Positions 14,887-31,943 of a stretch of DNA of 64,000 nt are shown here, piece after piece; the stretch's first letter is position 1, and every line of letters starts with the position of its first letter. The notes beneath the pieces were generated by a model. The model made no database searches. It saw only the letters and a program-made list of their open reading frames with translations, and was not told the DNA's origin. Source of the DNA: Minisyncoccota bacterium (GTDB lineage Bacteria; Patescibacteriota; Minisyncoccia; Phycocordibacterales; PALSA-1337); contig JBAZRG010000002.1 of the NCBI GenBank assembly GCA_041663145.1, positions 94,618 to 158,617 of the forward strand. Direction: 5' to 3'. The position numbers and the translations under genes were made by a program.

Positions 14887-14889
14887 ATA

Positions 14890-15315
14890 ATGTATAATAT
14901 CGTCATGAATGAACAATCCACAAAAAAGATTTTATTTATAGATGATGACAAATTCCTTCTGGATATGTACTCACTAAAATTCACAAAAGCCGGTTATGAG
15001 GTCAAAACTGCCGATTCGACCGAAAGCGCAGTAAAGATCTTGCGTGATGGGTACTCTCCGGCTGTTATTCTGGTTGACGTTGTGATGCCGGGTATGGATG
15101 GACTCGATCTGGTGTCAATAATCCGAAAAGAAGGACTAGACGGCAAATCGAAGATTGTCATGCTTACAAACCAAGGAGCATCGGATGAGATAGTTCGAGC
15201 CAAGAAGCTCAATGTGGACGGTTATATCGTCAAGGCCACAACCATACCGTCGGAAGTTTTGGAAGAAGTTGATAAGATTATTAAAAATAATAGCAAACAG
15301 GAGGTTTCAAAATAA
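14890..15315 (+). CDS. response regulator receiver domain protein (CheY-like, no output domain)
   Basis: KILFIDDDKFLLDMYS ... VDVVMPGMDGLDLV ... VMLTNQ carry the receiver Asp and Lys positions. Confidence 0.8.
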   Translation: MYNIVMNEQSTKKILFIDDDKFLLDMYSLKFTKAGYEVKTADSTESAVKILRDGYSPAVILVDVVMPGMDGLDLVSIIRKEGLDGKSKIVMLTNQGASDEIVRAKKLNVDGYIVKATTIPSEVLEEVDKIIKNNSKQEVSK

Positions 15316-15320
15316 AAAAC

Positions 15321-16379
15321 ATGGACTATAAATCTGAAATAGAAGATTTGGTAAATCTGATATTGAAAGAGGGAGCTTCCGATCTGCATCTTTCGGTCGG
15401 TCGCAATCCGATCATCAGAGCATCGAGCAATCTTATACCCTTACTAAAGAGGCCTGTTCTTACCGAGGCCGATATGAAAGGTTTTATGAATGTGTTCTTG
15501 TCTCCAGCCAGCAAAGATCTACTCGAAGAGAGTAAAGACGTGGATTTTTCATATAGTCTTACCCACGCTCGATTTCGAGGTAATGCCTTTTATCGTCAAG
15601 GAGTGATCTCTATAGCCCTACGTCTCATCCCAAAAGTCATACGCACGCTCTCCGAGCTCAATCTTCCTCCGATATTGGAAACATTTACTAGGAGACCGCA
15701 AGGTTTCTTCCTCGTAGTGGGTCCGATCGGTCAGGGTAAAACAACCACCCTCTCATCATTGGTCGAACTCATAAATACCACAAGGACTGAGCATATATTG
15801 ACCATCGAAGATCCGATAGAGTATCTATTCGAATCAAAAAAATCCATCATCGATCAGAGAGAGGTCCGTCTCGATACTCCAGACTTTAACAATGCTCTTA
15901 CCGCCATGTTCCGTGAAGATATAGACGTGGCTATGGTCGGCGAGATGCGCGATGCAAATACCATGTCTACAGCAGTGACCGCGGCCGAAACTGGCCACCT
16001 CGTTTTCTCGACATTGCATACAAATAGCGCCGCCTCGACAGTCGATCGTATCATCGATACATTTTCTCCAAATCAGCAAGATCAGATCCGTGTGCAGTTG
16101 GCGGGATCTTTGACGGGTATCTTTTCCCAGCGACTCATACCGAGAATATCGGGCGGACTGATACCGGCTTATGAACTCCTCATAAATAACAGCGCTGTTT
16201 CAAATCTGATCCGTGAACGTCGCACACACGAATTGAATACAGTTATAGAGACAAGTTCACAAGTGGGTATGATAGATATGAACAGATCTTTGGCCGAATT
16301 GGTCCGGGCAGGGGAGATCACGGTTGAGAACGCCTATATGAGTTCATTAAATCCAAAGACATTGGAAAGAATGATATAG
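15321..16379 (+). CDS. pilT: twitching motility ATPase PilT
   Basis: Walker A (GPIGQGKTTT), EDPIEY, and the AIRN-like region. Size is 352 aa. Confidence 0.9.
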   Translation: MDYKSEIEDLVNLILKEGASDLHLSVGRNPIIRASSNLIPLLKRPVLTEADMKGFMNVFLSPASKDLLEESKDVDFSYSLTHARFRGNAFYRQGVISIALRLIPKVIRTLSELNLPPILETFTRRPQGFFLVVGPIGQGKTTTLSSLVELINTTRTEHILTIEDPIEYLFESKKSIIDQREVRLDTPDFNNALTAMFREDIDVAMVGEMRDANTMSTAVTAAETGHLVFSTLHTNSAASTVDRIIDTFSPNQQDQIRVQLAGSLTGIFSQRLIPRISGGLIPAYELLINNSAVSNLIRERRTHELNTVIETSSQVGMIDMNRSLAELVRAGEITVENAYMSSLNPKTLERMI

Positions 16380-16406
16380 AAATGTGTAAATCAATAATAA
16401 ATAAAC

Positions 16407-17615
16407 ATGCTTTTTAATTACGAAGCCATAGATGATACCGGAGCCAAAAAGACTGGTTCGATCGATGCTATCAATGTCGATGTAGCCATTTCTTCACTGC
16501 AACGTCGTGGTCTGGTTTTGTCGTCTATCAGGGATGCTGAGACTCGTTCATTTCTATCAAAGAATATATCATTTTTCGATAGGGTCTCGACAAAAGATGT
16601 TGTTATTTTGTCACGCCAGCTATCAACCCTATTTGAAGCTCAAGTTTCAGCTTTGCGCGTCTTTCGACTTCTGGCTGCCGAATCAGAAAATCACACTCTG
16701 GCGGCAAAATTGCAGATCGTAGCCGATGATCTCCAAAGTGGAAGCTCGATGTCGCAGGCCATGGCCAAGCACCCAAAGATCTTTTCGGAGTTTTATACAA
16801 ACATGGTCAAGGCTGGAGAAGAATCTGGAAAATTGGATGAGACATTCCAATACCTGGCGGATTATCTGGAGAGGACATACGAATTGTCCTCGAAAGTTCG
16901 CGGTGCTCTCATATATCCAGCTTTCGTGGTGGTCACTTTCTTTACTGTCATGATATTGATGTTCACTATGGTTATTCCGAAGATCAGCGGCATCATCACC
17001 GAGTCTGGAGCTGAAATACCGATCTATACACAGGTTATATTGGGTATAAGTAATTTCTTGGTTCAATATTTCTTTATTTTGGCTGTAATCTTTGCAGTGA
17101 TCGTATTTTTTGTTATTCGTTTTATAAGAACTCCAGCAGGTAGTATGGCTTTCGATCAGTTCAAATTGACTATTCCTTATATCAATACTCTATTTCGCAA
17201 AATGTATCTGGCGCGTATGGCAGACAATATGAATACAATGCTCATCTCAGGCATACCGATCATTCGAGCGTTGGAGCTGACTGCCGATGTTATCGACAAT
17301 AAAGTCTATGAACAAATCATGCACAATGCCGTCGAGTCGGTCAAAGGAGGCAAGACTCTGTCCGAAGCATTGTCTAATAATAACGAATATATTCCAGGCA
17401 TTATGGTTCAGATGACAAAGGTTGGTGAAGAAACCGGTGAAGTTGGTAATATCTTGAAGACCTTGGCTCGTTTTTATGGTCGTGAAGTTGCAACGGCGGT
17501 CGACTCTCTAGTGTCACTTATCGAACCTGGAATGATAGTGCTATTGGGAGGCGGTGTAGCGGTATTGCTAGCTTCCGTCCTAGTGCCAATCTACAATATT
17601 GCCGGCGCCCAGTAG
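16407..17615 (+). CDS. pilC: type IV pilus platform protein PilC (GspF family)
   Basis: Two GspF repeats and 3 TM helices. Size is 402 aa. Confidence 0.88.
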   Translation: MLFNYEAIDDTGAKKTGSIDAINVDVAISSLQRRGLVLSSIRDAETRSFLSKNISFFDRVSTKDVVILSRQLSTLFEAQVSALRVFRLLAAESENHTLAAKLQIVADDLQSGSSMSQAMAKHPKIFSEFYTNMVKAGEESGKLDETFQYLADYLERTYELSSKVRGALIYPAFVVVTFFTVMILMFTMVIPKISGIITESGAEIPIYTQVILGISNFLVQYFFILAVIFAVIVFFVIRFIRTPAGSMAFDQFKLTIPYINTLFRKMYLARMADNMNTMLISGIPIIRALELTADVIDNKVYEQIMHNAVESVKGGKTLSEALSNNNEYIPGIMVQMTKVGEETGEVGNILKTLARFYGREVATAVDSLVSLIEPGMIVLLGGGVAVLLASVLVPIYNIAGAQ

Positions 17616-17732
17616 GGCGGATTGTTATCCACATGTGGCATTACATCGCAATTATAGGGTAGTGCTATAATTGTGCTAACAGCCTTAAATAGGTTAGTTA
17701 TTAGAGGATTAATAATTATTAGTAAATAATAT

Positions 17733-18188
17733 ATGAAAAAGTACACAAGAGGTTTCACTCTTATAGAGTTGCTCGTGGTAATCGCCATCATCGGTATTTT
17801 GGCGTCAGTAGTGCTCGTCTCCTTGGGCTCAGCAAGAGCAAAGGGTAGGGCTGCATCTGCTCAAAGCAGTATGACAAGCATGAGAGCACAGGCGGAATTA
17901 AATGTTTCTGCTAGTGGCACATATCCTTCAACGCTTTGTACAGCAACTACAGGTGAGCTTGCTACATTACTAGCTGCTGTTCAGACACAAACAGGTGTAG
18001 CACCTACTTGTGATGTTACTACTGCAGGAGGTTCATGGGCTGTTTCAGCAACTATGACAGGAGTTGGTGGTGTTGCTGGTACGAATACAGCTTACTTCTG
18101 TGTTGATAGTTCCGGTTTCTCCGGTGGACGAGTAACAGCTGGAATTACCGGTTCTGACGGTACGACATGGGCTTGCCCAGCTTCATAG
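17733..18188 (+). CDS. type IV major pilin, copy 1
   Basis: MKKYTRGFTLIELLVVIAIIGILASVVLVSLG is a class III signal with Gly at -1 and Glu at +5. A Cys pair lies near the C-terminus. A TATAAT box sits upstream and a terminator downstream. Confidence 0.85.
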   Translation: MKKYTRGFTLIELLVVIAIIGILASVVLVSLGSARAKGRAASAQSSMTSMRAQAELNVSASGTYPSTLCTATTGELATLLAAVQTQTGVAPTCDVTTAGGSWAVSATMTGVGGVAGTNTAYFCVDSSGFSGGRVTAGITGSDGTTWACPAS

Positions 18189-18206
18189 TATCTATTCTTT
18201 AGTTTG

Positions 18207-18244
18207 AAAAACTGCCCGCCTCTTAGGTGGGCAGTTTTGTTTGG
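18207..18244 (+). terminator. rho-independent terminator after pilin copy 1
   Basis: Stem CTGCCCGCC / GGTGGGCAG with a 5-nt loop, followed by TTTTGTTT. Confidence 0.6.
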
Positions 18245-18398
18245 GGCGACGTAGTGACATGTTACTGGGGGTGCGCCTGTTATTATCCACACATGGCATT
18301 ACATTGCAATTCTAAGGGAATGCTATAATGCTATAATTGTGCTAACAGCCTTAAATAGGTTAGTTATTAGAGGATTAATAATTATTAGTAAATAATAT

Positions 18399-18854
18399 AT
18401 GAAAAAGTACACAAGAGGTTTCACTCTTATAGAGTTGCTCGTGGTAATCGCCATCATCGGTATTTTGGCGTCAGTAGTGCTCGTCTCCTTGGGCTCAGCA
18501 AGAGCAAAGGGTAGGGCTGCATCTGCTCAAAGCAGTATGACAAGCATGAGAGCACAGGCGGAATTAAATGTTTCTGCTAGTGGCACATATCCTTCAACGC
18601 TTTGTACAGCAACTACAGGTGAGCTTGCTACATTACTAGCTGCTGTTCAGACACAAACAGGTGTAGCACCTACTTGTGATGTTACTACTGCAGGAGGTTC
18701 ATGGGCTGTTTCAGCAACTATGACAGGAGTTGGTGGTGTTGCTGGTACGAATACAGCTTACTTCTGTGTTGATAGTTCCGGTTTCTCCGGTGGACGAGTA
18801 ACAGCTGGAATTACCGGTTCTGACGGTACGACATGGGCTTGCCCAGCTTCATAG
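18399..18854 (+). CDS. type IV major pilin, copy 2 (identical protein)
   Basis: The 151-aa product is identical to that of 17733-18188. Confidence 0.85.
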   Translation: MKKYTRGFTLIELLVVIAIIGILASVVLVSLGSARAKGRAASAQSSMTSMRAQAELNVSASGTYPSTLCTATTGELATLLAAVQTQTGVAPTCDVTTAGGSWAVSATMTGVGGVAGTNTAYFCVDSSGFSGGRVTAGITGSDGTTWACPAS

Positions 18855-18872
18855 TATCTATTCTTTAGTTTG

Positions 18873-18910
18873 AAAAACTGCCCGCCTCTTAGGTGGGCAG
18901 TTTTGTTGGT
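18873..18910 (+). terminator. rho-independent terminator after pilin copy 2
   Basis: Same hairpin and T-tract as the copy 1 terminator. Confidence 0.6.
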
Positions 18911-18925
18911 GCTATAATCATCTTC

Positions 18926-20803
18926 ATGCAAAAACCATCACTCTGCTCAGTGGCAATATTTGTTGGTACGAGTTTGTTTCTAGTAGCACCATTTGTTCTC
19001 AGTAGTTATTTATCAGAACACCTCATTCTGATTTCAATAATATTTGGACTTTTCGGATTACTTTTGACACTGCATTTCAAAAAGTCTATCCAAAAGACTT
19101 TGTCAAATAAACTAGCGTTTGTGTTTCTGATTTGTTTGCTAGTTTTAATTCCATTTTCAATCACAAAACTATCTTCAGTCACTCATTTATTTTGGTGGTT
19201 ATCATATATAGCTGTATTTTTGTCGGCACAATGTCTCGTTTTTGATAAAAAACTATTGCAAATAGGATCAAAATTATTTGTGGCAATTACCGCTGTATAC
19301 GCAGTCATCATGTCATACCAGTTTATATTGTCTGGCCTTAGTTCGTATACACGACTGGTCGGATTGTCCGCTGGACACAATATATATGGTGGGTTTCTTA
19401 TTTTGCCTTTTTTCTTGAGTATTTATTTAGCAATTGTGGAAGAAGAGCGATGGAAGAAAATATCCTGGATCATTGCCGGAGCAATCATCTTTTCCAATAT
19501 CATCCTGACTTTTTCCAGAGGGACATGGCTTTCCATTATTATAGGAATAATTGTTTTTGCTGTCATATTTCGTGAGAAATTTCTATGGCACGATGTTTTG
19601 AACTCTTGGAAGACATACGTCTCTATATTAGTCTTGGCAGGAATGATCACAGGTGGTCAATGGGTTATGGCTAGAAACAACACATCAAAGATTGACTCCA
19701 GACGTCTGGCAGAAGTAGAGATATTTTCCAATGAAGATGCTGATAGCAATGCCTTTACTGCCAGATTGTTCTATTTCAAAGATGCACTCAATACTTTCAT
19801 TGAACGTCCCATATTTGGTTTTGGTGGGGGATCGTATCAGTTTGCTCTACGCATGAATAAGCAAGATCCGAATTATGGTTCATTCGCCGACCCACACAAT
19901 TGGTTTTTGCGCATGCTAGTGGAGAATGGAATATTGGCAACGATTATATTTATAGGATTTTTATTCTCTTTGTTTTGGGGTATTGGCAAATCTATTTTGC
20001 GTACGGAAAAGACCGATAAAAAAACCAACTGGTTGAATATGGTCATATTTATCGGATTACTCTCATATCTTCTTCATGGTCTCATGGATATGGATTGGAA
20101 TTATCCGGTTCTGCTTTTGATTTTCTTTTCTTTTGCCGGCGCTTTGTATGGCAACACGCTTTCCGAGAGTGATGTGAAAGAATCCAGAAGAAAATATTTT
20201 TCACTGTGGATCAATGTCATTCTGATATTTGTAATGATTATCTCGGCCATGATTGCTGTCCAAATGTTTCGCTCTGATAGTGCCAGGAGGGACGGCGATT
20301 ATTTCTATTTTGCAAAAGAAGACAATGATTCGGCAGTGGTGAGTTATTATGATGCTATCAAGTTGAATCCCTACAATTCGGCTCCTTGGTACAGTCTTTG
20401 GAATGTCTATATGGGTGAGAACAAGTTCAATTATGCAGAGACGGCTATAGGGAAGGCCATATCTCTATTTCCGACAAATGGTACATATTACGGCGCTTTG
20501 GCGACAAGCTATGCTTCATCTAGTAATCCACAGGGTTACCATGATGCTTTGGTTAAATCCATAAAGTATTTTCCAGCTAACAATCTTATAAATTATGTGA
20601 AGCTCGTGCATTATGATTTTGTTCAAAAAGATTATAAAGAAGCATTGGAATATCTTGACCGAGTCATACCGATTTATACGCATTATCAAACGGTTTTATG
20701 GTACAAAAACGACCCAAACTCAGCGATGATGACTCAGAATCTCGCGACTCTGAAGGAGTACAAAACTAAGATTGAAAAAATTACAGGCAAGAAGTTGGAG
20801 TAG
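18926..20803 (+). CDS. O-antigen ligase-like (Wzy_C/PglL-type) polytopic membrane protein with C-terminal TPR region
   Basis: At least 10 predicted TM helices. NIILTFSRGTWLSIIIGII is the Wzy_C loop region. The C-terminus has TPR-like repeats (YYDAIKLNPYNSAPWYSLWNVY). I moved the start to the ATG at 18926 so that it clears the pilin terminator. Confidence 0.6.
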   Translation: MQKPSLCSVAIFVGTSLFLVAPFVLSSYLSEHLILISIIFGLFGLLLTLHFKKSIQKTLSNKLAFVFLICLLVLIPFSITKLSSVTHLFWWLSYIAVFLSAQCLVFDKKLLQIGSKLFVAITAVYAVIMSYQFILSGLSSYTRLVGLSAGHNIYGGFLILPFFLSIYLAIVEEERWKKISWIIAGAIIFSNIILTFSRGTWLSIIIGIIVFAVIFREKFLWHDVLNSWKTYVSILVLAGMITGGQWVMARNNTSKIDSRRLAEVEIFSNEDADSNAFTARLFYFKDALNTFIERPIFGFGGGSYQFALRMNKQDPNYGSFADPHNWFLRMLVENGILATIIFIGFLFSLFWGIGKSILRTEKTDKKTNWLNMVIFIGLLSYLLHGLMDMDWNYPVLLLIFFSFAGALYGNTLSESDVKESRRKYFSLWINVILIFVMIISAMIAVQMFRSDSARRDGDYFYFAKEDNDSAVVSYYDAIKLNPYNSAPWYSLWNVYMGENKFNYAETAIGKAISLFPTNGTYYGALATSYASSSNPQGYHDALVKSIKYFPANNLINYVKLVHYDFVQKDYKEALEYLDRVIPIYTHYQTVLWYKNDPNSAMMTQNLATLKEYKTKIEKITGKKLE

Positions 20804-20816
20804 GTGCTAAGAATTA

Positions 20817-20916
20817 GGAACCTTCCGGAAATAACTTCCCTCCCGTGCTCCGAGGATGGGTAGCCAGCGATTAGCGCCCGCAGGAGACGGGAGGGAAGTT
20901 ATTTCCGGAAGGTTTC
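20817..20916. repeat. long palindromic hairpin element, family B copy 1
   Basis: 30-bp near-perfect inverted repeat (GGAACCTTCCGGAAATAACTTCCCTCCCGT) around a loop containing CCGAGGATGGGTAGCCAGCGATTAGCGCCCGCAGG. It lies exactly between two convergent stop codons (20803 and 20917). Confidence 0.6.
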
Positions 20917-22224
20917 TTAGTAAGCGCCTCTTCCAAATAGTACCGCTGGAATTGTTTTTAGGATTATTACGGAGTCTAGGAGCATGCTTTGGTTGCAGAC
21001 ATAGTAGAAATCATATTCCAAATTTTCGTGGAGGGGTATGTCTTTGCGTCCCAATATCTGCCACAAACCAGTTAGACCTGGCTTGGCTTTGAGGCGGATC
21101 TGTTGCCATGGTTCGTATTTTTTGACTATAAATTCCATTTCAGGTCTCGGACCGACCAAGCTCATATCTCCTTTGAAAATATTCCAGAGTTGAGGCAATT
21201 CATCCAAACTCAGTCGACGAAGAAATCTGCCTATTTTGGTAATGCGTGGATCGGTCTCATTTTGTGGAGCATATTCATAGAGAGTTGCTGTGCAATGCAT
21301 GGTTCTAAATTTCCAGAGTGTAAATGGTCTGCCATCTGATCCGATGCGTGACTGTTGGATGAGCGCTGGACCATTGGAATCAAGTTTGATCACGGCAGTT
21401 ATGATGAGCCAGAGTGGGGTGACTATTATCATTCCTGTTCCAGCTATGACTATGTCAATGATTCTTTTTGTGTACAAGTAAACAGTATTTGGTCGAACAT
21501 TCGGAGTGATAGAAGGTATATCGTCTATGTTGTTCAAGCGTATCTCTCCGGTAACTAGCCTGAAAGTGTCAAGAATCACTCTGAAACTGTGATGCTTCAG
21601 ATTTTGATCAGCCAATATTTTCATGACTCGCTCACGTCCGAGATATTCATCAGCAATGAATATGTCATCGGAGTTTATTGTGCGTAAGTACGTAGCGGTT
21701 TGAGGATCATTGAAATCTAGCTTGATGACAGATAGATTGGGAAAAACATTTTTGATCTGTTTTTCAATATCTTTTGCTCGATCGCCAGTGCCTATGATAT
21801 GCACATTGTCATCACCATCTTTTTTACCATTCCGCCTATACCTGAAATATCCGAAACGTGTAAGAGTGATGAATATGACTGTGAACAATACAGTCAAGAA
21901 CAATACTCCGCGAGAGAAATCATATTTTATGGCATAAATGACGGCTGTTATGATAAGTGTCCAGACGACCAATGCTTTCAAGACTGTAAATATCCTAGCC
22001 GACAACTCTATATTGCGGACACGATAGAGTCTAAAGGCGGAGAAAATGATTATAAGCAGGACGGAAGCGATGATAAAGGAAAGTAAGTAGCCACCTTTGT
22101 CAAACGTAATCTTCCCAAAGTATGGATTCAGCAGGGAAGATTGGCGGAGAAAGAGGGAAAGAAGGAAGGTGAGGGTGAGGGAAATAGAATCTATGGTAAT
22201 TAGTTTTATGCGATCTATTTGCAT
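20917..22224 (-). CDS. undecaprenyl-phosphate sugar phosphotransferase (bacterial sugar transferase, WbaP/EpsB family)
   Basis: The C-terminal catalytic domain (LIQQSRIGSDGRPFTLWKFRTM ... DELPQLWNIFKGDMSLVGPRPE) is recognisable. The N-terminal 4-5 TM helices fit the family. Confidence 0.8.
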   Translation of the reverse strand: MQIDRIKLITIDSISLTLTFLLSLFLRQSSLLNPYFGKITFDKGGYLLSFIIASVLLIIIFSAFRLYRVRNIELSARIFTVLKALVVWTLIITAVIYAIKYDFSRGVLFLTVLFTVIFITLTRFGYFRYRRNGKKDGDDNVHIIGTGDRAKDIEKQIKNVFPNLSVIKLDFNDPQTATYLRTINSDDIFIADEYLGRERVMKILADQNLKHHSFRVILDTFRLVTGEIRLNNIDDIPSITPNVRPNTVYLYTKRIIDIVIAGTGMIIVTPLWLIITAVIKLDSNGPALIQQSRIGSDGRPFTLWKFRTMHCTATLYEYAPQNETDPRITKIGRFLRRLSLDELPQLWNIFKGDMSLVGPRPEMEFIVKKYEPWQQIRLKAKPGLTGLWQILGRKDIPLHENLEYDFYYVCNQSMLLDSVIILKTIPAVLFGRGAY

Positions 22225-22301
22225 AGAATTCTTTTCTGAAGAAATATGTTATATTTTTGCTAGGTTAAGAGCCTAAAACATCATCTTACTACACAAATCT
22301 C

Positions 22302-23273
22302 ATGTCTACAAAGTTCCCAAGATTATATAAGAAAAGGGCGAAAATTGCTAAAGCACTAAAGAGTCAAAGCCTCCTTTCTTTTTTTTATGTCATATTGGGA
22401 ATATTGAAAAGTCATATAGTTCAATTATTTCTTAATCTTAAATATAGCTATAAAGATACATCACTTCCGATTTTGCCTCAGATTCATCCAGTGTTTGACA
22501 GGCCGGTAACAATAATAATCCCTTTTCGTGATAACATTCATTTGCTCGAAAGATGTTTGAATAGCATTTTTGATAGGACTTCATATAATAATTTCAATTT
22601 AATTCTTATAAATAATCGGAGTGTAGAAGCAAAGACTGCGAAATATCTTTCATCTATAAAAAACGATCCACTCATTCGAATATTAGACTATGATAAATCT
22701 TTCAATTACTCCGATATGCACAATTGGGCGATGAATTTTGTTCAAACTGAAAATATATTATTACTTAATAATGATACGGAAGTTATAACTCCAAATTGGC
22801 TTGAATCACTCACCGCTTGGATAGAACAAGAGAAAGTTGGAGCGGTTGGGGCGCTCCTCTTATTTCCAAATGGGACGGTACAACATGCTGGAGTCGGCTT
22901 GTATCCCGAGATTGCATGTCATCTTTACGAAGGTGAATCGCCAAATGGAGATAATAAAAGTTCGATCAATCAATGTCGCGAGCTCTATGCTGTTACTGGT
23001 GCTTGTATGATGACAAAAAGAAATCTTTTCGAGGGAGTTCAAGGAATGGACAGCGCAAATTTGCCGGTGAATTTCAATGATGTGGATTATTGTTTGAAAC
23101 TGAGACAGAGAGGCTATAAGATTGTTTTCGAACCCTCTGTCAAACTTTATCACCATGAATCTTATACCAGAGGCAATGCGTGGACTCAGATTACGAGATA
23201 CAGATCATACAAAAAAGAGCATAGATTTTTCTGGAAGAAATGGAAAAAATATATCGGAGATATCGTTAAATGA
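22302..23273 (+). CDS. glycosyltransferase family 2
   Basis: VTIIIPFRDNIHLLERCLNSI ... LILINNRS, plus a DxD-like motif in ILLLNNDTEV. Confidence 0.7.
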   Translation: MSTKFPRLYKKRAKIAKALKSQSLLSFFYVILGILKSHIVQLFLNLKYSYKDTSLPILPQIHPVFDRPVTIIIPFRDNIHLLERCLNSIFDRTSYNNFNLILINNRSVEAKTAKYLSSIKNDPLIRILDYDKSFNYSDMHNWAMNFVQTENILLLNNDTEVITPNWLESLTAWIEQEKVGAVGALLLFPNGTVQHAGVGLYPEIACHLYEGESPNGDNKSSINQCRELYAVTGACMMTKRNLFEGVQGMDSANLPVNFNDVDYCLKLRQRGYKIVFEPSVKLYHHESYTRGNAWTQITRYRSYKKEHRFFWKKWKKYIGDIVK

Positions 23274-23286
23274 CGATTTCCGATTG

Positions 23287-24135
23287 TTATTTTCGACGTA
23301 GACGCGCTTCCTTTTTTACGCGAACAGAGAAATGATTTGCACCTATTATTAGGATTATCAAATCGATCAGATATTTGATTGGATATTCTATTATGTTCAA
23401 GTATTTATCCTGGACAAGATACGTTTCGACGGAATTCTCAAAAGCATTTTCCGGTGCCAGTGACCAATTTTGGCCATGCATAACAAAAACATCTACTAGT
23501 CGGTCAAAAAACATCCATCGTGTCTTATTCCGTATCCTTAAAAAAAAATCATAATCCATTGGACACTTTATCGATTCATCGAAATATCCGTATTGTTCGA
23601 AGACTTGTCTTTTGATGAATACGGACTGGTGATTGATGGAAGAGTGGAATTTCAACAGATATTTTCCAAGAAAACTTCTGGAGGAAAATCGGGAACATTT
23701 CGAGCGATTTGTTGTTTTAACAATTGTTCCTGATGGATTTATTCTGGTTTCTTTTCCATATATCCAATCGCAGTTATTTTGCTTCAGAAACAAATCGACA
23801 TCAGTCAAGACCTCTTTATCATGAAGACGATCGTCGGAATGAAGATGAATCAAGTATTCTCCCTTGGTCACCATGGTACCTTCATTCATGGCATTTGATA
23901 TACCTTTTGCCGGACGACTGACTAGCGATACTTTGTCAGGAAATTTATTTTTATACTCCTCTATTATTTCTATTGTTCGGTCGGTGGACTCACCATCAAC
24001 GAATATATGTTCGTAGTTACCAAATGTCTGCGAAGCGACACTGTCAATATTGTATTTTAGATATTCTTCGCTGTTTTTAGTACAGGTAATAATGGAGAAT
24101 CTAGGCTTCATATTTTGTGTTTTCAAATATAGCAT
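23287..24135 (-). CDS. glycosyltransferase family 2
   Basis: FSIITCTKNSEEYLKYNIDSVASQTFGNYEHIFVDGESTDRT is a typical GT2 N-terminus. Confidence 0.7.
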   Translation of the reverse strand: MLYLKTQNMKPRFSIITCTKNSEEYLKYNIDSVASQTFGNYEHIFVDGESTDRTIEIIEEYKNKFPDKVSLVSRPAKGISNAMNEGTMVTKGEYLIHLHSDDRLHDKEVLTDVDLFLKQNNCDWIYGKETRINPSGTIVKTTNRSKCSRFSSRSFLGKYLLKFHSSINHQSVFIKRQVFEQYGYFDESIKCPMDYDFFLRIRNKTRWMFFDRLVDVFVMHGQNWSLAPENAFENSVETYLVQDKYLNIIEYPIKYLIDLIILIIGANHFSVRVKKEARLRRK

Positions 24136-24817
24136 CGGCCTGAAGTGGTTGCAATGTTGTTGGATCTAGCAACTGTTCAATGTTACCAATGTAGTTAAAA
24201 CCCATTTTTGTGAGTTTATTGTATATATCATCAAAGAGTGGTTGACCCTCATATAGACTTTTGTAACTGACTTCAATCATGATTATCGGAGAGAGTTTGA
24301 ATGTTTCAAGACCACCATTTATCACGTTTATTTCGTATCCTTGGGTATCAATCTTGATAAAAGGTCTTTTGCATTTGTCCCTTATCTCATCGATATTGTC
24401 GAGCTTTCTTACCAATACAATCTCTTTTTGTGATTTTGCTGTAAAAGGAAAAGCTTTTTTATGCAGATCGTCCATCTTTAGTAGTGATGAAGAAGGACTG
24501 AATTCACAATGATTCATCGACATTTCTTTATTTTCATCTCCGATTGCACATTGTATAACTTTTACATTTTGTCGGTCTTTTGTTTTCGTCTGAAGTTTTT
24601 TGTAGACCTCTCTAAGAGGTTCAAAACAATATGTTTGTTTTCCAGGGAAGACTTTCATTATTTTTTCAAGAAACTGACCCTCGTTTGCTCCGATATCAAG
24701 GATTGAATCAATGGTATATTTTTTTAGCCAAGATAAATCAGAGGAACTGTCATTTGTAGTGTCTCTTACTCGAAAATGAAATATTGGTCGTAATATTTTT
24801 TTTATGATATTTTTCAT
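24101..24817 (-). CDS. FkbM family methyltransferase
   Basis: ILDIGANEGQFLEKIMKVFPGKQTYCFEP carries the SAM-binding GxGxG. Size is 238 aa. Confidence 0.65.
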   Translation of the reverse strand: MKNIIKKILRPIFHFRVRDTTNDSSSDLSWLKKYTIDSILDIGANEGQFLEKIMKVFPGKQTYCFEPLREVYKKLQTKTKDRQNVKVIQCAIGDENKEMSMNHCEFSPSSSLLKMDDLHKKAFPFTAKSQKEIVLVRKLDNIDEIRDKCKRPFIKIDTQGYEINVINGGLETFKLSPIIMIEVSYKSLYEGQPLFDDIYNKLTKMGFNYIGNIEQLLDPTTLQPLQADAIFENTKYEA

Positions 24818-24821
24818 GTCT

Positions 24822-26045
24822 TTACAGTTTTTTTGTGTCCATACGAATCAATGATGCCATGGGTCCATATATTTTACTGCCAAAAAGTTTGTCTCTAAGA
24901 TTGTTTTTACTACTGATGATGCGAAAGAATGTTTCTGCAGTATCGACAAATTCAATAGTTGGTCTCTGAAGATTGGCGTTAATCTTGTATGTACCAACAT
25001 TAAAAAAGAATGCCGGTATTGTAATATTTGAACGGAATGTGCCAGGCGTGTAATTTCTCAATTGGCCGTCAATATCTCCCTCGGAAACGTGGTATATCAC
25101 TTTTGAATCTGCATAAAAGATAATACATGGAATCACTTTGCTAAGAGATTCTTTTACTACAAATTCAAATTGAATTTGAAAAGGTGAGTCAATTGATAAT
25201 TTTGAAGATATTTTGTTGGAGTTATCAAGTAGTTTTACCGACGATATGTAAGCTTCATCTTTTGTTGTTTTATTTTGGGGAGCGGTGTACACCATCGTAT
25301 CGTTTATGTATTTTGCTACAATGTCTGTAGAATCACCCATTTCCTTTATTATTCCATTGTCCAGATATATTGTTTTTGAACAAATATTTTCAATAACATC
25401 CAGGTTGTGGCTAACAAGCAAAACAGTTCGTCCTTCTGTCTTGGACACATTTTCTATTTTCCCCAAACATTTTTTCTGAAATTCGGCATCGCCGACCGCT
25501 AGGACTTCGTCTACGATCAAGATGTCTGGTTCAAGATGGGCGGCGACGGCGAAGGCTAGGCGGACATACATGCCACTCGAGTAGTGCTTGACTGGTGTGT
25601 CTAGAAATTTCTCTATGTCAGCAAAGGCGACTATCTCATCAAATTTCTTGGCGACCTCTTTTCTGGTCATGCCTAGAATGACACCATTTAAGAAGATATT
25701 TTCTCTGCCGGTAAGCTCTGGGTGGAAGCCGGTGCCAACTTCCAAAAGGGAAGAGACACGACCAAAAAGTTTGACTTTGCCTTCGGTTGGTTTTGTTATA
25801 CCAGACAAAATCTTGAGAAGGGTTGATTTGCCAGCACCATTTTTACCTATGATGCCTATGATGTCACCTTTGTTTACGGTCAAATTTATGTCCTTAAGTG
25901 CCGAAAATGATTCGCGAGTCTTGCGTCTTCTGAATGGGTGCCTAATGAAACCCACGATAGTGTCGCGCAAAGTTCCATAACGAACCTTTTCGTGCATTAT
26001 GGGATATTTTTTTCCAAGGCCGGAAATTTCTATGATTGGTTTCAT
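24822..26045 (-). CDS. polysaccharide ABC exporter ATP-binding protein (Wzt/TagH-like, with C-terminal extension)
   Basis: Walker A (GKNGAGKSTLLK), signature (YSSGMYVRLAFA) and Walker B (ILIVDEVLAVGD). There is about 150 aa of extra C-terminal sequence. Confidence 0.8.
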   Translation of the reverse strand: MKPIIEISGLGKKYPIMHEKVRYGTLRDTIVGFIRHPFRRRKTRESFSALKDINLTVNKGDIIGIIGKNGAGKSTLLKILSGITKPTEGKVKLFGRVSSLLEVGTGFHPELTGRENIFLNGVILGMTRKEVAKKFDEIVAFADIEKFLDTPVKHYSSGMYVRLAFAVAAHLEPDILIVDEVLAVGDAEFQKKCLGKIENVSKTEGRTVLLVSHNLDVIENICSKTIYLDNGIIKEMGDSTDIVAKYINDTMVYTAPQNKTTKDEAYISSVKLLDNSNKISSKLSIDSPFQIQFEFVVKESLSKVIPCIIFYADSKVIYHVSEGDIDGQLRNYTPGTFRSNITIPAFFFNVGTYKINANLQRPTIEFVDTAETFFRIISSKNNLRDKLFGSKIYGPMASLIRMDTKKL

Positions 26046-26048
26046 GGT

Positions 26049-26897
26049 TTATATAACATCGGAAAATGCTCCTTCGGACTTGCTAAAATAATACATGCTC
26101 CAAATGAAAAGCAGTAAGGTGATGAGTAGAGATAAAATAATGGGAGTGGTTGAAAAAGGTAGAGAGAATATGGAAGAACGAAAGGCCTCTATGATTCCGG
26201 TGATGGGATTTAGGTTCAATAGAAATTGATATTTTCCCAAACTGGTTCCAGCATATATGACAGGGCTAAGGAATAGTCCAAGTTGAATGAAAAATGGAAG
26301 AGCGTATTGAACATCGCGGTATTTGACATTGAAAGCAGAGAGAAAGATGCCTATGCTAGCAGAAACTATTCCAAGTAAGAGTAGTATCGGAATTATGAGA
26401 AGTATACTGATGTTTGAAGGAAAGACATGAAAATAAATCATTAGTCCGACTAAGATGACGAGAGAAATAGCTAGGTCAATGGATTGAGTAACTATTTTTG
26501 CTAAGGGAACGATGATACGTGGAAAATATATCTTAGTGATCATCTGACTTGAGACGACTAGAGATGTGCTGGCCTCATTTATGGAATTGGAAAAGAATTG
26601 CCAAATGACAAGACCAGAATATACAAAAAGGGCATAAGGGATGACATTGTTGGTCATACCACCGAATCTGCCAAAGATAAAAACGAAAGCCAACATGGCC
26701 ACTACAGGCTGAAATATGGCCCAGGCAATGCCTATGATAGTCTGACGGTATCTGACCTTATAATCCCTCCAGGCAAGCAGATATAGAAGCTCGCGATGAT
26801 GCCAAATGTCACCAATCTCCAGAAAAGGGTCAAATCTGGTACGTGGTTCTATGACTTTGAGTGGTATTCGAGGGGCGGATGTCTCCTGCATCGCCAT
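26049..26897 (-). CDS. ABC-2 type polysaccharide exporter permease (Wzm-like)
   Basis: 6 TM helices. The ABC-2 family is inferred from its adjacency to the Wzt-like ATPase. Confidence 0.75.
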   Translation of the reverse strand: MAMQETSAPRIPLKVIEPRTRFDPFLEIGDIWHHRELLYLLAWRDYKVRYRQTIIGIAWAIFQPVVAMLAFVFIFGRFGGMTNNVIPYALFVYSGLVIWQFFSNSINEASTSLVVSSQMITKIYFPRIIVPLAKIVTQSIDLAISLVILVGLMIYFHVFPSNISILLIIPILLLLGIVSASIGIFLSAFNVKYRDVQYALPFFIQLGLFLSPVIYAGTSLGKYQFLLNLNPITGIIEAFRSSIFSLPFSTTPIILSLLITLLLFIWSMYYFSKSEGAFSDVI

Positions 26898-26972
26898 ATA
26901 TTAGCATGATATAATCGCTTTATAACAACATGAAAATTTTATGGAAACGTTAATGTGTTATGAACACAAGTA

Positions 26973-27743
26973 ATGAAATACGTGACTATTATAATTGTCA
27001 CATATAATTCCAGTCAATTTATAAATAATTGTTTAAATTTTTTGTTGTCTTCGGACGCACTTTCGATAAGTAGGATCATTGTTATAGATAATAATTCAGT
27101 GGATGGTACACAAGAATTATTGCAAAAATTCAGCAATATGTCTGAGATCACTATTATCTATAATATGAAAAATGTTGGGTATACGAAAGCATGCAATCAA
27201 GGCATAATGATGTCTTCGAGTAAATATGTCTTAATCCTCAACCCCGATATACAAGTAGGTAATGGATCAGTAAAGAGATTGTATGAATATATGGAAAGAT
27301 ATGATGTGGCAGTTGTGGGAGGAAAACTTATGTATTTTGACGGCAAGCTCCAGTACTCATGTCGTACATTTCCCAGTCCATTAACTTTTTTATATAGAGC
27401 TTTACAGATTGAAAATAATAAGACGATAAGGACACATTTGATGTACGATTTCGATCATGGGGAACCTCGTGATGTTGACTGGTTACTCGGTTCTTGTCTG
27501 ATGATTAGGCGAAAAGTTTTAGATGAAATCGGTTTTCTTGATGAGAAGTATTTTATGTATTATAGCGATGTTGAATTTTGTTGGAGAGTCCATAAAAATA
27601 ATTGGAAAGTGACATATGTACCTGACTCTGAAATGTTTCATTATTATCAGAGACAAAGTGCTAAAGGTGTACCTGGTTTTCTCGCATTATCGCACTTAAG
27701 GAGTGCTGTTAGGTTTTTTGTCAAAAGATACATTAAAGCTTAA
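26973..27743 (+). CDS. glycosyltransferase family 2
   Basis: VTIIIVTYNSSQFINNCLNFL ... VIDNNSVDGT ... LILNPD show the GT2 pattern. Confidence 0.7.
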   Translation: MKYVTIIIVTYNSSQFINNCLNFLLSSDALSISRIIVIDNNSVDGTQELLQKFSNMSEITIIYNMKNVGYTKACNQGIMMSSSKYVLILNPDIQVGNGSVKRLYEYMERYDVAVVGGKLMYFDGKLQYSCRTFPSPLTFLYRALQIENNKTIRTHLMYDFDHGEPRDVDWLLGSCLMIRRKVLDEIGFLDEKYFMYYSDVEFCWRVHKNNWKVTYVPDSEMFHYYQRQSAKGVPGFLALSHLRSAVRFFVKRYIKA

Positions 27744-27817
27744 GGCATTAATTATCAATTGTTCCAATACTTCCAAAGCGTCATTTGTTTTCATCTAAAA
27801 AATGTTAGAATAATTAA

Positions 27818-28810
27818 ATGAAGATATTCAGGTTGGTAGCATCAGTCGTCCTTGTTCTCATCATTTTCGCATCGGTTTATTTCATTTATTCAAGATTAAC
27901 AACACTATCTTCAGAATTCAGATTGGTGGAATTTCTCCGAGTAGATCCTGCTAAATCTTTTTCTGTCATTGTCCTTCCCGATACTCAGTTTTATTCGTCT
28001 CATTATCCTGGAATATTTTGTAGTCAAACACAATGGATTGTAGACTATAAGGATGATTTGAATATAGTATTTGTTTCGCACATGGGTGATATAGTGAATG
28101 ATGGGGCAAAAGAGATGAAGCAATGGAAGAATGCTTCAAAATGTCTTAGGAAGTTGGATGGAATTGTTCCTTATAGTGTCATTCCTGGCAATCATGATAC
28201 GAATATTCAGAGTGATAAATCATCTGGATTATCAATGTATGACAAATTCTTTCCGGTCTTAACATCCAAACGTAATGGTTGGTACGGTGGCAATTTTGAT
28301 GGCAATAGAAATAATTTTGAGATGATTTCTTCAAATGGTTTGAAGCTATTATTTATCAATTTGGAGATTGAGCCGACGGATGCCGTTTTGAATTGGGCAA
28401 ATGATATAGTTAGGAATAATTCCACTGTGTATACAATAGTAACAACGCATAAATATCTTGATATAGATGGAAAGAATCCTGAAAATAAGAGAGCATTTAG
28501 TATAGATGGCAATACTGGGGAAGATATTTGGAATAAATTAGTATTTGATAATTGCTCTATAGCCATGGTTTTGTCAGGACACTTTCATGGTGAGAATAAA
28601 ATTACAAAAATCAATTCGTGCGGAAATGATGTGAGTCAGATCGTTCAAGATTATCAGGCCAGAGAAAATGGTGGAAACGGCTGGTTGCGTATATACGTTT
28701 TTACACCAAATGATAAAAAGATTGATGTCTATACATATTCTCCATATTTGGGGAAAATAGAAATTGATGACAACAGTTCTTTTTCTTTAGGGATACCTGT
28801 TGATAACTAA
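27818..28810 (+). CDS. calcineurin-like metallophosphoesterase, membrane-anchored
   Basis: N-terminal TM helix. The metallophosphatase motifs are present: LPDTQFY, HMGDIVNDG, PGNHD and SGHFHGE. Confidence 0.6.
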   Translation: MKIFRLVASVVLVLIIFASVYFIYSRLTTLSSEFRLVEFLRVDPAKSFSVIVLPDTQFYSSHYPGIFCSQTQWIVDYKDDLNIVFVSHMGDIVNDGAKEMKQWKNASKCLRKLDGIVPYSVIPGNHDTNIQSDKSSGLSMYDKFFPVLTSKRNGWYGGNFDGNRNNFEMISSNGLKLLFINLEIEPTDAVLNWANDIVRNNSTVYTIVTTHKYLDIDGKNPENKRAFSIDGNTGEDIWNKLVFDNCSIAMVLSGHFHGENKITKINSCGNDVSQIVQDYQARENGGNGWLRIYVFTPNDKKIDVYTYSPYLGKIEIDDNSSFSLGIPVDN

Positions 28811-28867: not shown

Positions 28868-29338
28868 ATGAATAAATACCCTCACTCTAAAGGTAAAGGT
28901 TTTACATTGATCGAGCTTCTCGTTGTCATAGCTATTATCGGCATCCTGGCATCGGTGGTATTGGTCAGTTTGGGAGCGGCAAAGGGCAAAGCTGCCGATG
29001 TAAAGATAATCTCTGACATAAAACAGATCCGAAGCGAGCTCGAGAGCAACTTTGATGGCTCGTCATATCCAGATCTTACAAACGACAGTCCCGTATATAC
29101 CGGTTTTGTAGCAGATGGAAATCCTGGTACTACAACCATAAATGCTTTGATTAGCGATATGAATTCTCAAGGCAGTGAAATAGTCGTTGTAAATGCGCCA
29201 TCAGATCCTTCGACATTCGTAACCGGTTACGCTCTATATGGAAGATTGGTATCGAGCAGTACTATGTATGTCTGCATGGATTCGACTGGCAAGACAAATC
29301 TGGAAGCATCCGATAACACAACATCGGTCTGCCCATAG
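28868..29338 (+). CDS. type IV pilin-like protein
   Basis: An internal start gives MNKYPHSKGKGFTLIELLVVIAIIGILASVVLVSLG. Confidence 0.7.
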   Translation: MNKYPHSKGKGFTLIELLVVIAIIGILASVVLVSLGAAKGKAADVKIISDIKQIRSELESNFDGSSYPDLTNDSPVYTGFVADGNPGTTTINALISDMNSQGSEIVVVNAPSDPSTFVTGYALYGRLVSSSTMYVCMDSTGKTNLEASDNTTSVCP

Positions 29339-29364
29339 AGAATTATAAGTGATATAATTTCACC

Positions 29365-29841
29365 ATGTCTAATAAAAATCTAAAGAATAAGGGTTTTACA
29401 TTGGTTGAGCTCATGGTAGTCGTGGTGATCATCGGTATATTGTCTGCTGTTGTCTTGGCAAACTTGAGTTCGGTCAAGTCAAAGTCCAGAGATGCAAAAA
29501 GGATTGCCGATGTCGGACAGATACAGTTGGCATTGGAGCAATATTTCGGAAGATGTCATGAATATCCAGGGGCACTTTCTGTGGGGTCATCTTGTTCCGA
29601 TCAAAGCGGAAATACTGTGAGTTTGTCGGATTTTATTTCTGTGATACCTACACCATCTTCACAGGCTGGTCAAAATAATTATCAGTATACGACAAAACAG
29701 TCTGGTCTGGATTATTATATTATGGCCACACTCGAAAATGACAATGAGGTCTTAACGGAAAGCCTTCCTTATGATTCGGTGGAATACCCAGATTGTTACG
29801 GTTCCTCGTATCCAAAAAATTATTGCGTAGGTCCTAGGTAG
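29365..29841 (+). CDS. type IV pilin-like protein
   Basis: MSNKNLKNKGFTLVELMVVVVIIGILSAVVLANL is a class III signal. Confidence 0.7.
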   Translation: MSNKNLKNKGFTLVELMVVVVIIGILSAVVLANLSSVKSKSRDAKRIADVGQIQLALEQYFGRCHEYPGALSVGSSCSDQSGNTVSLSDFISVIPTPSSQAGQNNYQYTTKQSGLDYYIMATLENDNEVLTESLPYDSVEYPDCYGSSYPKNYCVGPR

Positions 29842-29873: not shown

Positions 29874-30677
29874 GTGGATACATTATCTCTCATACTTTCA
29901 TTTATATTCGGTACCATAGTCGGTAGCTTCTTGAATGTGGTGTCTTTGCGATTAAATACTGGAAATACAGTGGGCGGTCGGTCAAAGTGCATGTCTTGCG
30001 GTAAACAATTGATATGGTTCGAACTTATACCTATATTGTCATTTTTTGTCCAAAATGGCTCGTGTCGAAAATGTAAAAGTAAAATATCATGGCAATATCC
30101 ATTGGTAGAATTTTTCGGCGGGGCAATATTTGTACTTATTTTCCTAACATTTCCGCCGGTATCACTAGAGACTGGATTACAAACTTTACTTTATATAATA
30201 ACAACATGTCTCCTCATAGTGATTGCGACTTACGATATCAAACACAAGATCATTCCTGATCCATTCGTATATACTTTTGCCCTTATAGCATTGTTGAGTC
30301 AGATATTTGGAGGAGCTTCCTGGATACATATACCGAGCGTATCGACATTGTTGGCTGGACCTTTATTGGCATTGCCTTTTGCTTTGATCTGGCTCATCTC
30401 GAAGGGAACATGGATGGGTCTAGGAGATGCCAAGCTGGTATTGGGGATCGGCTGGTTGCTCGGTCTTTATTCTGGGGTAAATGCTATCGTTCTGGCTTTT
30501 TGGATTGCGGCCGCAGTTTCGGTGATATGGCTCATTCTCACATCCAAAGAGTTCAAGGCCAAAACCGAAGTGCCTTTTGGCCCATATCTCATCATTGGTA
30601 TGTATTTGGTCCTGTTTTTTGAGGTGTCTGTTATCGATATTCACATACTTAGGGATCTTGTGCTGTCGTATATTTGA
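29874..30677 (+). CDS. pilD: prepilin peptidase PilD (A24 family) with N-terminal zinc-binding CxxC...CxxC
   Basis: The DiS_P_DiS region is IVGSFLNVVSLRL...CMSCG...CRKCK. The peptidase_A24 TM core carries the catalytic Asp residues (ATYDIKHKIIPD and GLGDAKL). Confidence 0.85.
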   Translation: MDTLSLILSFIFGTIVGSFLNVVSLRLNTGNTVGGRSKCMSCGKQLIWFELIPILSFFVQNGSCRKCKSKISWQYPLVEFFGGAIFVLIFLTFPPVSLETGLQTLLYIITTCLLIVIATYDIKHKIIPDPFVYTFALIALLSQIFGGASWIHIPSVSTLLAGPLLALPFALIWLISKGTWMGLGDAKLVLGIGWLLGLYSGVNAIVLAFWIAAAVSVIWLILTSKEFKAKTEVPFGPYLIIGMYLVLFFEVSVIDIHILRDLVLSYI

Positions 30678-30701: not shown

Positions 30702-31304
30702 ATGAGATCTTCACGAATCCAAAAAGGCTTCACATTGATCGAGCTCATGGTCACCGTGGGGATATTTGTCTTCATGACGGCGCTTCTTCTCGCAAAATAT
30801 AACAATTTCAATTCAGGGACTCTACTCACAAATCTAGCCTATGATGTGGCTTTGACTTTACGTCAAGCTCAGACATACGGTCTAAGTGTGGTCAATAGTC
30901 AACAGTCAGGAGCAAATTTTAGTAAGGCTTATGGAGTATATTTCGTAGATGAATCCGCAGAATATACTTTTTTTGTCGATTTTAATACAAAGGCATTTAA
31001 TACTGAGGGGATATTGAATGATACCAATGACGCAATCGAATCTATAAGCAAATATACTTTGAAACGAGGAGCGACTGTCACTGGACTTTGCGCGGTAAAC
31101 GATACAATCTGTTCGTCTTCGGATTTCAATAAGACTCATTTGGGCATCACTTTCAAAAGACCAGATCCAGATGCCATCATCAAAGCCAGTACAGATGGTT
31201 CCAATTGGGATACATACAACCATGCGGAAATAAGAGTTTCCCAAAACGGCGTTCATCGTATAATAAAGGTCAATAGTTATGGTCAGATCGGTATTCAAGA
31301 TTAA
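30702..31304 (+). CDS. minor pilin / pseudopilin (GspH/FimT-like)
   Basis: MRSSRIQKGFTLIELMVTVGIFVFMTALLL. Confidence 0.6.
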   Translation: MRSSRIQKGFTLIELMVTVGIFVFMTALLLAKYNNFNSGTLLTNLAYDVALTLRQAQTYGLSVVNSQQSGANFSKAYGVYFVDESAEYTFFVDFNTKAFNTEGILNDTNDAIESISKYTLKRGATVTGLCAVNDTICSSSDFNKTHLGITFKRPDPDAIIKASTDGSNWDTYNHAEIRVSQNGVHRIIKVNSYGQIGIQD

Positions 31305-31306
31305 TC

Positions 31307-31921: not shown

Positions 31922-31943
31922 GATAAAGTAGCATGAAAAAGAT

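Follow-up and report, generated by a model that had tools for sequence, protein, structure and literature searches.

What does a cassette of glycan-assembly genes do in the middle of a type IV pilus locus? The question is raised by a 64-kb stretch of the genome of a Minisyncoccota bacterium (Patescibacteriota; contig JBAZRG010000002.1, positions 94,618 to 158,617), hereafter the window, in which genes were called from a list of open reading frames (ORFs) combined with Pfam and NCBIfam searches. The cassette begins directly behind a duplicated major pilin gene with a membrane protein related to O-antigen ligases (referred to as the ligase), and continues with an initiating sugar-phosphate transferase, three GT2 glycosyltransferases, a methyltransferase, a Wzm/Wzt exporter and a metallophosphoesterase. 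Every gene that an initial annotation of this DNA had placed in the region was recovered there. No surface organelle is better conserved in Patescibacteria than the type IV pilus, which functions, in cultivated members, in host attachment, motility and competition. Glycosylation of their pilins has so far been addressed with site predictors only, and no enzyme has been proposed (PMC11623550); our literature search found no report of an O-oligosaccharyltransferase (O-OTase) in Patescibacteria. We conclude that the locus probably encodes a protein O-glycosylation system with the adjacent type IV pilin as its main acceptor. Pilin glycosylation had been put forward in the initial annotation and, as a prediction from genes, is the best-supported reading, based on pilin-ligase adjacency in 10 of 11 loci, a catalytic residue set predicted to face outward and the dissimilarity of the ligase to WaaL.

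The ligase gene (18926..20803, + strand) encodes a candidate O-OTase of 625 amino acids (aa), in which a Wzy_C domain (PF04932; 85 bits versus a cut-off of 31.7) is followed by a tetratricopeptide repeat (TPR) tail of ~175 residues (451-625). The start listed for this ORF, a GTG at 18893, falls within the terminator of the second pilin copy; the true start is likely the ATG at 18926, giving the length of 625 aa. An AlphaFold2 model of the protein (predicted local distance difference test score, pLDDT, 74.5; predicted template-modelling score, pTM, 0.72) has 13 transmembrane (TM) helices. Lysine and arginine residues number 12 in the predicted inner loops versus 1 in the short outer loops. This positive-inside count places the N terminus inside, and predicts that a 79-residue catalytic loop (257-335), the invariant residues and the TPR domain face outward. 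Invariant in the 11 ligase orthologues are R198 (LTFSRGTW), R280, H324-N325-x9-G335 (DPHNW...G) and D388/D390 (HGLMDxDW). The critical set of WaaL-type enzymes comprises R215, R288, H338 and D389 together with an H[NSQ]x9Gxx[GTY] motif (bioRxiv 10.1101/2022.10.31.514599), and the conserved His is needed in every O-OTase class (PMC9829042). The invariant residues agree with this set in order and spacing, an equivalence that does not derive from a reliable WaaL alignment; the final motif position is A or V, unlike the published G/T/Y. Thus, examination of the topology and catalytic loop, as the initial annotation had proposed, revealed an intact Arg/Arg/His/Asp set with a predicted outward orientation.

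Substrate-specific O-OTases are typically encoded next to their pilin substrates (PMC12645811). Close relatives of the ligase form a small group of ~14 cluster representatives at E < 1e-110 among 5.8 billion proteins, followed by a gap to 1e-18. The closest stem from uncultured Patescibacteria, one of them annotated as Ca. Taylorbacteria and two belonging to metagenome-assembled genomes labelled Saccharibacteria. The upstream side of the ligase is visible in 11 distinct orthologous loci, window included, and a pilin lies directly upstream in 10 of them (the window, L001-L007, L017 and L024). The adjacency pointed out in the initial annotation is thus conserved in related genomes and, as it recurs in independent metagenomes, goes far beyond chance. 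It has also been retained through rearrangement of the surrounding genes. In L017 the cassette is reordered, in L003 a MNT/HepT toxin-antitoxin pair (4814-5655) lies between ligase and transferase, and in L007 genes of mobile or defence type (transposase-like, ATPase and HEPN-like ORFs) have been inserted (4088-9441), all with the pilin-ligase link kept. The cassette of L024 has been deleted, with the pilin and an intact ligase remaining; a chimeric ORF of 178 aa (2842-3378, - strand), joining the N terminus of an ABC ATPase (Wzt) to a Bac_transf C terminus, represents the deletion scar. In L026 (473-10037) a more distant ligase homologue (31% identical) abuts two pilins, pilC and pilT. Here the block of ligase, phosphoglycosyl transferase, glycosyltransferase, Wzt and Wzm genes is inverted, while the third GT2 gene (GT2c), the metallophosphoesterase and a pilin stay on the pilus strand. 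The initiating transferase of L026 is of the small monotopic type (191 aa), and its Wzt (243 aa) has no C-terminal extension. In every complete locus, the cassette has the major pilin or pilins on one side and pilD with the other pilins on the other.

To which group of Wzy_C proteins does the ligase belong? It might be a WaaL-type ligase of lipopolysaccharide (LPS) O-antigen or a Wzy-type repeat-unit polymerase, as Pfam Wzy_C is common to WaaL and some Wzy proteins and one data source names the ligase 'O-antigen ligase'. Moreover, a Foldseek comparison of the model with the PDB returned mostly TPR matches, and WaaL (7TPG, E 3.3e-4) was the sole solved membrane fold recovered. Profile searches of the PDB with the full-length ligase found TPR proteins only, and with the TM domain alone nothing meaningful. 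However, direct alignment to E. coli WaaL by hhalign reached a probability of only 4.7%, and the RfaL model (PRK15487) scored 25 bits versus a cut-off of 277, so that the protein does not group with WaaL; it was a grouping with WaaL-type ligases that the initial annotation had named as contradicting its proposal. No LPS genes are present within the 64-kb window. Patescibacteria are not known to have an outer membrane, to synthesize lipid A or to make LPS. Identity as a Wzy polymerase was rejected because the pathway is ABC-transporter-dependent: no Wzx flippase, Wzy polymerase partner, Wzz or LCP gene was found in any pilin-embedded orthologous locus, and a pathway of this type, without Wzx or Wzz, needs no polymerase. 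Furthermore, an outer-face TPR tail has been reported as a feature of protein OTases (PMC2943079). We therefore regard a WaaL or Wzy function as highly improbable.

The ligase was compared with PglL, TfpO, TfpM, PglS, WsaB/WsfB and TacL by domain markers and published features. The initial annotation had described the system as PglL/PilO-type, a label that is not supported. In PglL/PglS enzymes, PglL_A and Wzy_C_2 domains co-occur with Wzy_C (PMC12645811). Neither domain was detected in the ligase at E <= 10, a search in which HMMER filters may mask very weak matches, and by this published domain criterion the ligase is not a PglL/PglS enzyme. It does share with PglL and PglS of Neisseria and Acinetobacter the Wzy_C core with the essential His and a C-terminal extracytoplasmic region (TPR reported for PglL), and their size of 520-600 aa is a further likeness. 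In contrast to the pilin-linked ligase described here, PglL acts as a general OTase, and its gene is usually unlinked to those of its substrates. The gene linkage is instead that of TfpO (PilO) and TfpM in Pseudomonas and Moraxellaceae, where the gene of a Wzy_C enzyme directly follows that of the major pilin. The substrates of these enzymes have a disulfide loop and a short tail with a C-terminal Ser (PMC9829042), and the window pilin is alike (...C-x24-C-PAS). However, TfpO and TfpM are 420-470 aa long without TPR, whereas the ligase has 625 aa with a TPR tail, and the C-terminal Ser/Thr that serves as their acceptor is not conserved in the orthologous loci, where it is found in two only. 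By size, TPR tail and acceptor rule, the ligase is not a TfpO/TfpM enzyme. Native PglL and TfpO systems, unlike the pathway in the window, are not ABC-transporter-dependent.

The closest relative found outside the Candidate Phyla Radiation (CPR) is a Wzy_C/TPR protein of Paenibacillus thiaminolyticus (P0016; hhalign probability 98.2%, E 3.8e-14), with an alignment spanning the catalytic loop, TM helices 10-13 and the TPR domain. The genes around P0016 encode Wzm, Wzt with a Wzt_C domain, an 806-aa methyltransferase fusion, a GT1 enzyme and Rml proteins; judged by these neighbours, the cluster has an S-layer-glycosylation-type organization. This affiliation, too, speaks against the PglL/PilO label. 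Note that P0016 is regarded as slg-type and is not equated with WsfB. In S-layer glycosylation, a surface protein of a Gram-positive envelope is modified by way of a WbaP-like initiating enzyme, export through Wzm/Wzt, capping with a terminal 2-O-methyl group and a Wzy_C OTase, and TPR are found in WsfB as well as in PglL (PMC2943079). Geobacillus stearothermophilus and Paenibacillus alvei possess S-layer protein O-glycosylation (slg) clusters, with the OTases WsaB/WsfB, that resemble the window in several respects. These clusters occur in organisms with a single-membrane envelope, bring together a WbaP-like initiator, Wzm/Wzt, a methyl-cap enzyme and a TPR-bearing Wzy_C OTase, and contain low-GC, variable glycosyltransferases. 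In contrast to these clusters, the neighbouring candidate acceptor in the window is a type IV pilin, the cassette lies within a pilus operon of Patescibacteria, and it contains no rml or other nucleotide-sugar genes. An exhaustive hidden Markov model search showed the wider ligase family to be large, the number of representatives rising from 50 at E <= 1e-30 to 1536 at E <= 1e-10, with a length of 600-650 aa in many of them. It is rather probable that a TfpO-like gene linkage has been joined with a Gram-positive S-layer-type pathway in this locus.

The remaining cassette genes, all with intact ORFs, define this pathway. The initiating enzyme (20917..22224, -) is a polyprenyl-phosphate hexose-1-phosphate transferase of the large WbaP/WcaJ type (Bac_transf 9e-62; TIGR03025 350 bits versus 296). 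Two GT2 glycosyltransferases are variable components: GT2a (22302..23273, +; Pfam) has orthologues in L017 and L020 only, and GT2b (23287..24135, -; Pfam 2e-24) in L001 and L003 only (48% identical). They are followed by an FkbM/RfbT-like methyltransferase (24101..24817, -; TIGR01444 88.8 bits, PF05575 RfbT 1e-7), a candidate for a chain-terminating cap enzyme. No orthologue of this gene was found in the other loci compared, some of which carry different methyltransferases. The possible methylation of the glycan suggested in the initial annotation is plausible for this genome, in the form of a terminal methyl cap. The exporter consists of the Wzt ATPase (24822..26045, -; ABC_tran 1.5e-24), a protein of 407 aa with a C-terminal extension of ~150 aa, and the ABC-2 permease Wzm (26049..26897, -; ABC2_membrane 4e-17, galactan Wzm/RfbD model 8.5e-21). 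The best PDB match of Wzt is a Wzt of 404 aa (8dku/7k2t, 3.6e-60), and the alignment reaches residue 307; a Wzt_C domain is recognized with confidence in the L002 and L005 orthologues. GT2c (26973..27743, +; TIGR01556 1.4e-21) is rhamnosyltransferase-like and has positional orthologues of 30-35% identity in L001, L003, L004, L017, L020 and L026, on the strand of the pilus genes. The last gene (27818..28810, +; Metallophos 8e-9) encodes a TM-anchored metallophosphoesterase, a conserved accessory component with orthologues in L004 (18361-19467; 59% identical) and L026 (473-1552; 48%) and no PDB relative detectable by sequence. At 48-59% identity, this metallophosphoesterase exceeds the ligase in conservation, and its position, after GT2c and before the downstream pilins, is likewise maintained.

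Comparison of the loci thus distinguishes a conserved core, consisting of the ligase (40-59% identity), initiating transferase (55-72%), Wzm (37-76%), Wzt (54-75%) and GT2c (30-35%), from a middle section that varies by locus and contains GT8, GT1/4, a GT8-GT9 fusion, UDP-galactopyranose mutase, cytidylyltransferase, PAP2 or methyltransferase genes, or none. The GC content of the window cassette genes is 33-41%, compared to 43-46% for the flanking pilus genes. With its conserved core, swappable transferases and modifiers, and low GC content, the cassette resembles an O-antigen locus. The ABC-transporter-dependent O-antigen pathways with end caps (E. coli O8/O9a, V. cholerae O1 with RfbT) and the Wzm-Wzt of Aquifex likewise use Wzm/Wzt with a C-terminal extension of Wzt; an FkbM/RfbT-like methyltransferase is common to the capped pathways and the window, and Wzx, Wzy and Wzz occur in neither. 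In contrast to these pathways, the acceptor in the window is unlikely to be lipid A-core, and the initiator is WbaP-like, as in S-layer systems, rather than WecA-like.

We next consider the candidate substrate. The major pilin (151 aa; N_methyl 5e-10) is encoded by two identical copies at 17733..18188 and 18399..18854 (both +), which belong to a pilin expression unit that is repeated exactly in tandem (17663..18907, +; 579 nt x 2, period 666 nt). Positions 17663-18241 and 18329-18907 are 100% identical over 579 nt and include the promoter region, gene and terminator. Such identity would imply a very recent duplication or gene conversion. Each copy is followed by an intrinsic terminator, at 18208..18243 (+; 14-bp stem and U-tract, -24.1 kcal/mol, z = -4.3) and 18874..18907 (+; -25.2 kcal/mol, z = -5.3); both were confirmed by folding, a consensus terminator scan having missed them. 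The ligase ATG is located 72 nt downstream of the second pilin copy and 20 nt past its terminator. The element TGcTATAAT (18909-18918) ends 8 nt ahead of this ATG, with no evident Shine-Dalgarno sequence in between, and we infer that it may be a promoter with an extended -10 element. This would suggest a leaderless or near-leaderless ligase transcript that starts just past the pilin terminator. The strong terminator behind each pilin copy and the position of TGcTATAAT just before the ligase ATG further suggest that the ligase may be expressed at a low level relative to the pilin.

The perfect identity of the pilin copies over 579 nt could also indicate an assembly artefact, and the locus as a whole might be decaying or non-functional, with nothing being glycosylated; L024 demonstrates that the cassette can be deleted. 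However, the sequences upstream of the two copies are only 84% identical, with an indel of 8 nt between them, which is what a real duplication would be expected to show, and L004 and L006 also have two tandem pilins upstream of the ligase, which in these loci have diverged. Both observations indicate that the duplication is real. In addition, the cassette ORFs of the window are intact, and the catalytic residues of the ligase are invariant among orthologues that are only 40-59% identical. We consider decay or an artefact very unlikely.

Where might the pilin be modified? In the window pilin, a short tail with a C-terminal Ser follows the disulfide loop, and the pilin adjacent to the ligase in L017 ends in ...PICS. 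At the C terminus of the other ligase-adjacent pilins stands Q, N, P or Y, or a longer tail (...TAGN or ...ATNL), and the TfpO-like C-terminal Ser as a family-wide acceptor rule was dropped after this comparison. The C-terminal disulfide loops span 18-27 residues across the compared pilins. Ser and Thr make up 32% of these loops versus 23%, a modest enrichment that we do not take as evidence for a site. The published sequons of PglS and TfpM resemble these C-terminal loops (PMC9829042); PglL and PglS modify internal Ser residues of pilins, and the sequon of PglS is located in a disulfide-bounded loop rich in Ser, Thr and Ala. Based on the pilin sequences, the best candidates for acceptor sites are the Ser/Thr-rich C-terminal disulfide loop and the short tail behind it.

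Several observations weigh against glycosylation of the pilin by this system. At the level of the acceptor, a C-terminal Ser/Thr of the TfpO/TfpM type is present in just 2 of ~11 adjacent pilins (window and L017), and these pilins have no conserved sequon beyond the invariant Ser of the motif C-(I/V)-D-S-x-G, whose role may be structural only. At the level of the proteins, the AlphaFold2 confidence is low over much of the catalytic loop (residues 260-323), and the window Wzt scores 19.7 bits for Wzt_C, under the cut-off of 30.4. At the level of the loci, L021 (1192-4332) has a GT8 gene and ruvA/rpsT upstream of the ligase and no pilin, with the convergent initiating transferase retained. The distant relatives P0039, P0027 (Wzz-associated) and P0015 (pglC/pglD-like) in L014-L016 have no pilin linkage. 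The only intermediate member examined, P0061 of L030 (649 aa), is accompanied by a transferase and glycosyltransferases beside a two-component system, again without a pilin. The occurrence of distant Wzy_C family members in pilin-free glycan clusters indicates that the ancestral function was not pilin-specific, and pilin embedding is a derived feature of one ligase subfamily, not of the whole family. Furthermore, the orthologous loci all belong to one narrow clade, so that part of the synteny may be inherited, not selected.

Some of these points would fit an alternative, raised in the initial annotation as a cell-wall polymer locus, in which the cassette makes a cell-envelope glycopolymer and the Wzy_C protein ligates it to a non-pilin acceptor, such as a membrane glycolipid, an S-layer or another envelope protein, the place in the pilus locus then reflecting history or co-regulation rather than substrate. 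The lipoteichoic acid ligase TacL of Streptococcus pneumoniae is not known to carry a TPR tail or to be linked to a pilin. Compared with the ligase by its published description, it is a Wzy_C-type enzyme of a single-membrane bacterium that transfers an undecaprenyl-pyrophosphate-linked polymer on the outer face, and its acceptor is a glycolipid (PMC5727136). The S-layer-type cluster of the closest non-CPR homologue, the pilin-free glycan clusters of L030, L014 and L016, the missing upstream pilin in L021, the non-conserved pilin C-terminal Ser and, in L005, teichoic-acid-like genes together with cytidylyltransferase and GLF genes point in the same direction. In contrast, an acceptor other than pilin does not explain why the pilin-ligase link has outlasted inversion, reordering, insertions and cassette loss, why the pilin genes are in each case divided by the cassette, which is never found at the edge of the pilus locus, or why GT2c and the metallophosphoesterase are co-oriented with the pilins even where the rest of the cassette is inverted. 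Moreover, no S-layer gene was recognized in the window or related loci, and no glycolipid-anchor synthesis gene was seen in any locus. An envelope polymer is thus a possible but less likely product of the cassette.

We favour a pathway in which type IV pilin receives a glycan that is exported by an ABC transporter and, in this genome, carries a methyl cap, and consider this sequence of steps reasonably probable. The WbaP/WcaJ-type transferase would add hexose-1-phosphate to undecaprenyl phosphate at the cytoplasmic face, and the chain would be extended by the positionally conserved GT2c together with the variable GT2a and GT2b. In this genome the FkbM/RfbT-like methyltransferase would then cap the non-reducing end, as RfbT, WbdD and WsaE would suggest by analogy. 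Wzm/Wzt would export the finished lipid-linked glycan, with the C-terminal extension of Wzt probably reading the cap. At the outer face, the 13-TM Wzy_C protein would move the glycan en bloc to Ser/Thr of membrane-resident pilin, before processing by the prepilin peptidase PilD and assembly. The target may lie in or just past the Ser/Thr-rich disulfide loop of the pilin, where the C-terminal Ser of ...CPAS is a candidate in this genome. Finally, the adjacent PilBCM machinery would polymerize the glycosylated pilin. Because the cassette behaves like an O-antigen locus, the pilus glycan is expected to differ between strains. More tentatively, the pilus of this clade could carry long, end-capped, strain-variable polysaccharide chains from an ABC-transporter pathway dedicated to them, which would amount to an 'O-antigen on a pilus', and the ligase could represent a new TPR-bearing class of pilin O-OTases related to the Gram-positive S-layer OTases.

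The cassette sits inside a complete type IV pilus locus and is flanked by pilus genes on both sides. Upstream (10332..17615, +) are PilM, three small PilN/O-like ORFs, PilB, a receiver-domain protein, PilT and PilC (Pfam PilM_2, T2SSE with MshEN, Response_reg, T2SSE and T2SSF), and their order from PilM to PilC is repeated in L001-L005. The receiver-domain gene (14890-15315, +) is stand-alone, located between pilB and pilT, and is also present in L001-L005. Upstream of pilM, a gene with a ComF-like phosphoribosyltransferase domain lies on the opposite strand (9580-10257, -). The corresponding position is filled in L001-L004, with a Pribosyltran match only in L002 and L004, and L005 is cut at the contig end. 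Downstream of the cassette follow two further pilins that are paralogues of the major pilin by alignment (28868..29841, starts 28868 and 29365, +; N_methyl), the prepilin peptidase PilD (29874..30677, +; A24_N_bact 1e-28, Peptidase_A24) and four minor-pilin-like genes (30702..33017, +), three of which have an N_methyl match. Elsewhere in the window, four tRNA genes are clustered at 42483-44257 and another is located at 50753-50823. An ORF of 862 aa (53453-56041, +) in a local GC peak (53% versus ~42%) matches the Pfam Major Vault Protein shoulder (1.3e-24) and a Vault_3 repeat (7e-7); a sequence search of the PDB gave no relative. A vault-protein-like gene is unexpected for a Patescibacteria genome.

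In conclusion, the locus offers, for Patescibacteria pili, a candidate enzyme and substrate that can be tested as a pair, along with all the genes of a predicted glycan pathway. Comparative genomics gives good support to a new combination, in which TfpO/TfpM gene linkage, the enzyme architecture and pathway of Gram-positive S-layer systems and an O-antigen-like variable cassette appear to be united in a CPR pilus operon. O-OTases have been reviewed as widespread in Gram-negative species, with the pilin-specific TfpO, TfpM and PglS described from Pseudomonas and Moraxellaceae (PMC9829042, PMC12645811). If the proposed function is correct, pilin-linked O-OTases would extend beyond the Gram-negative systems (TfpO, TfpM, PglS, PglL) and connect them to the S-layer systems of Gram-positive bacteria. 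An OTase that accepts ABC-exported glycans with a reducing-end hexose could also serve glycoengineering. For the organisms themselves, our analysis suggests that pilus surface chemistry may vary between strains as O-antigens do, and, if the pilus is indeed glycosylated, these episymbionts could depend on the glycan for recognizing host cells or evading phages.

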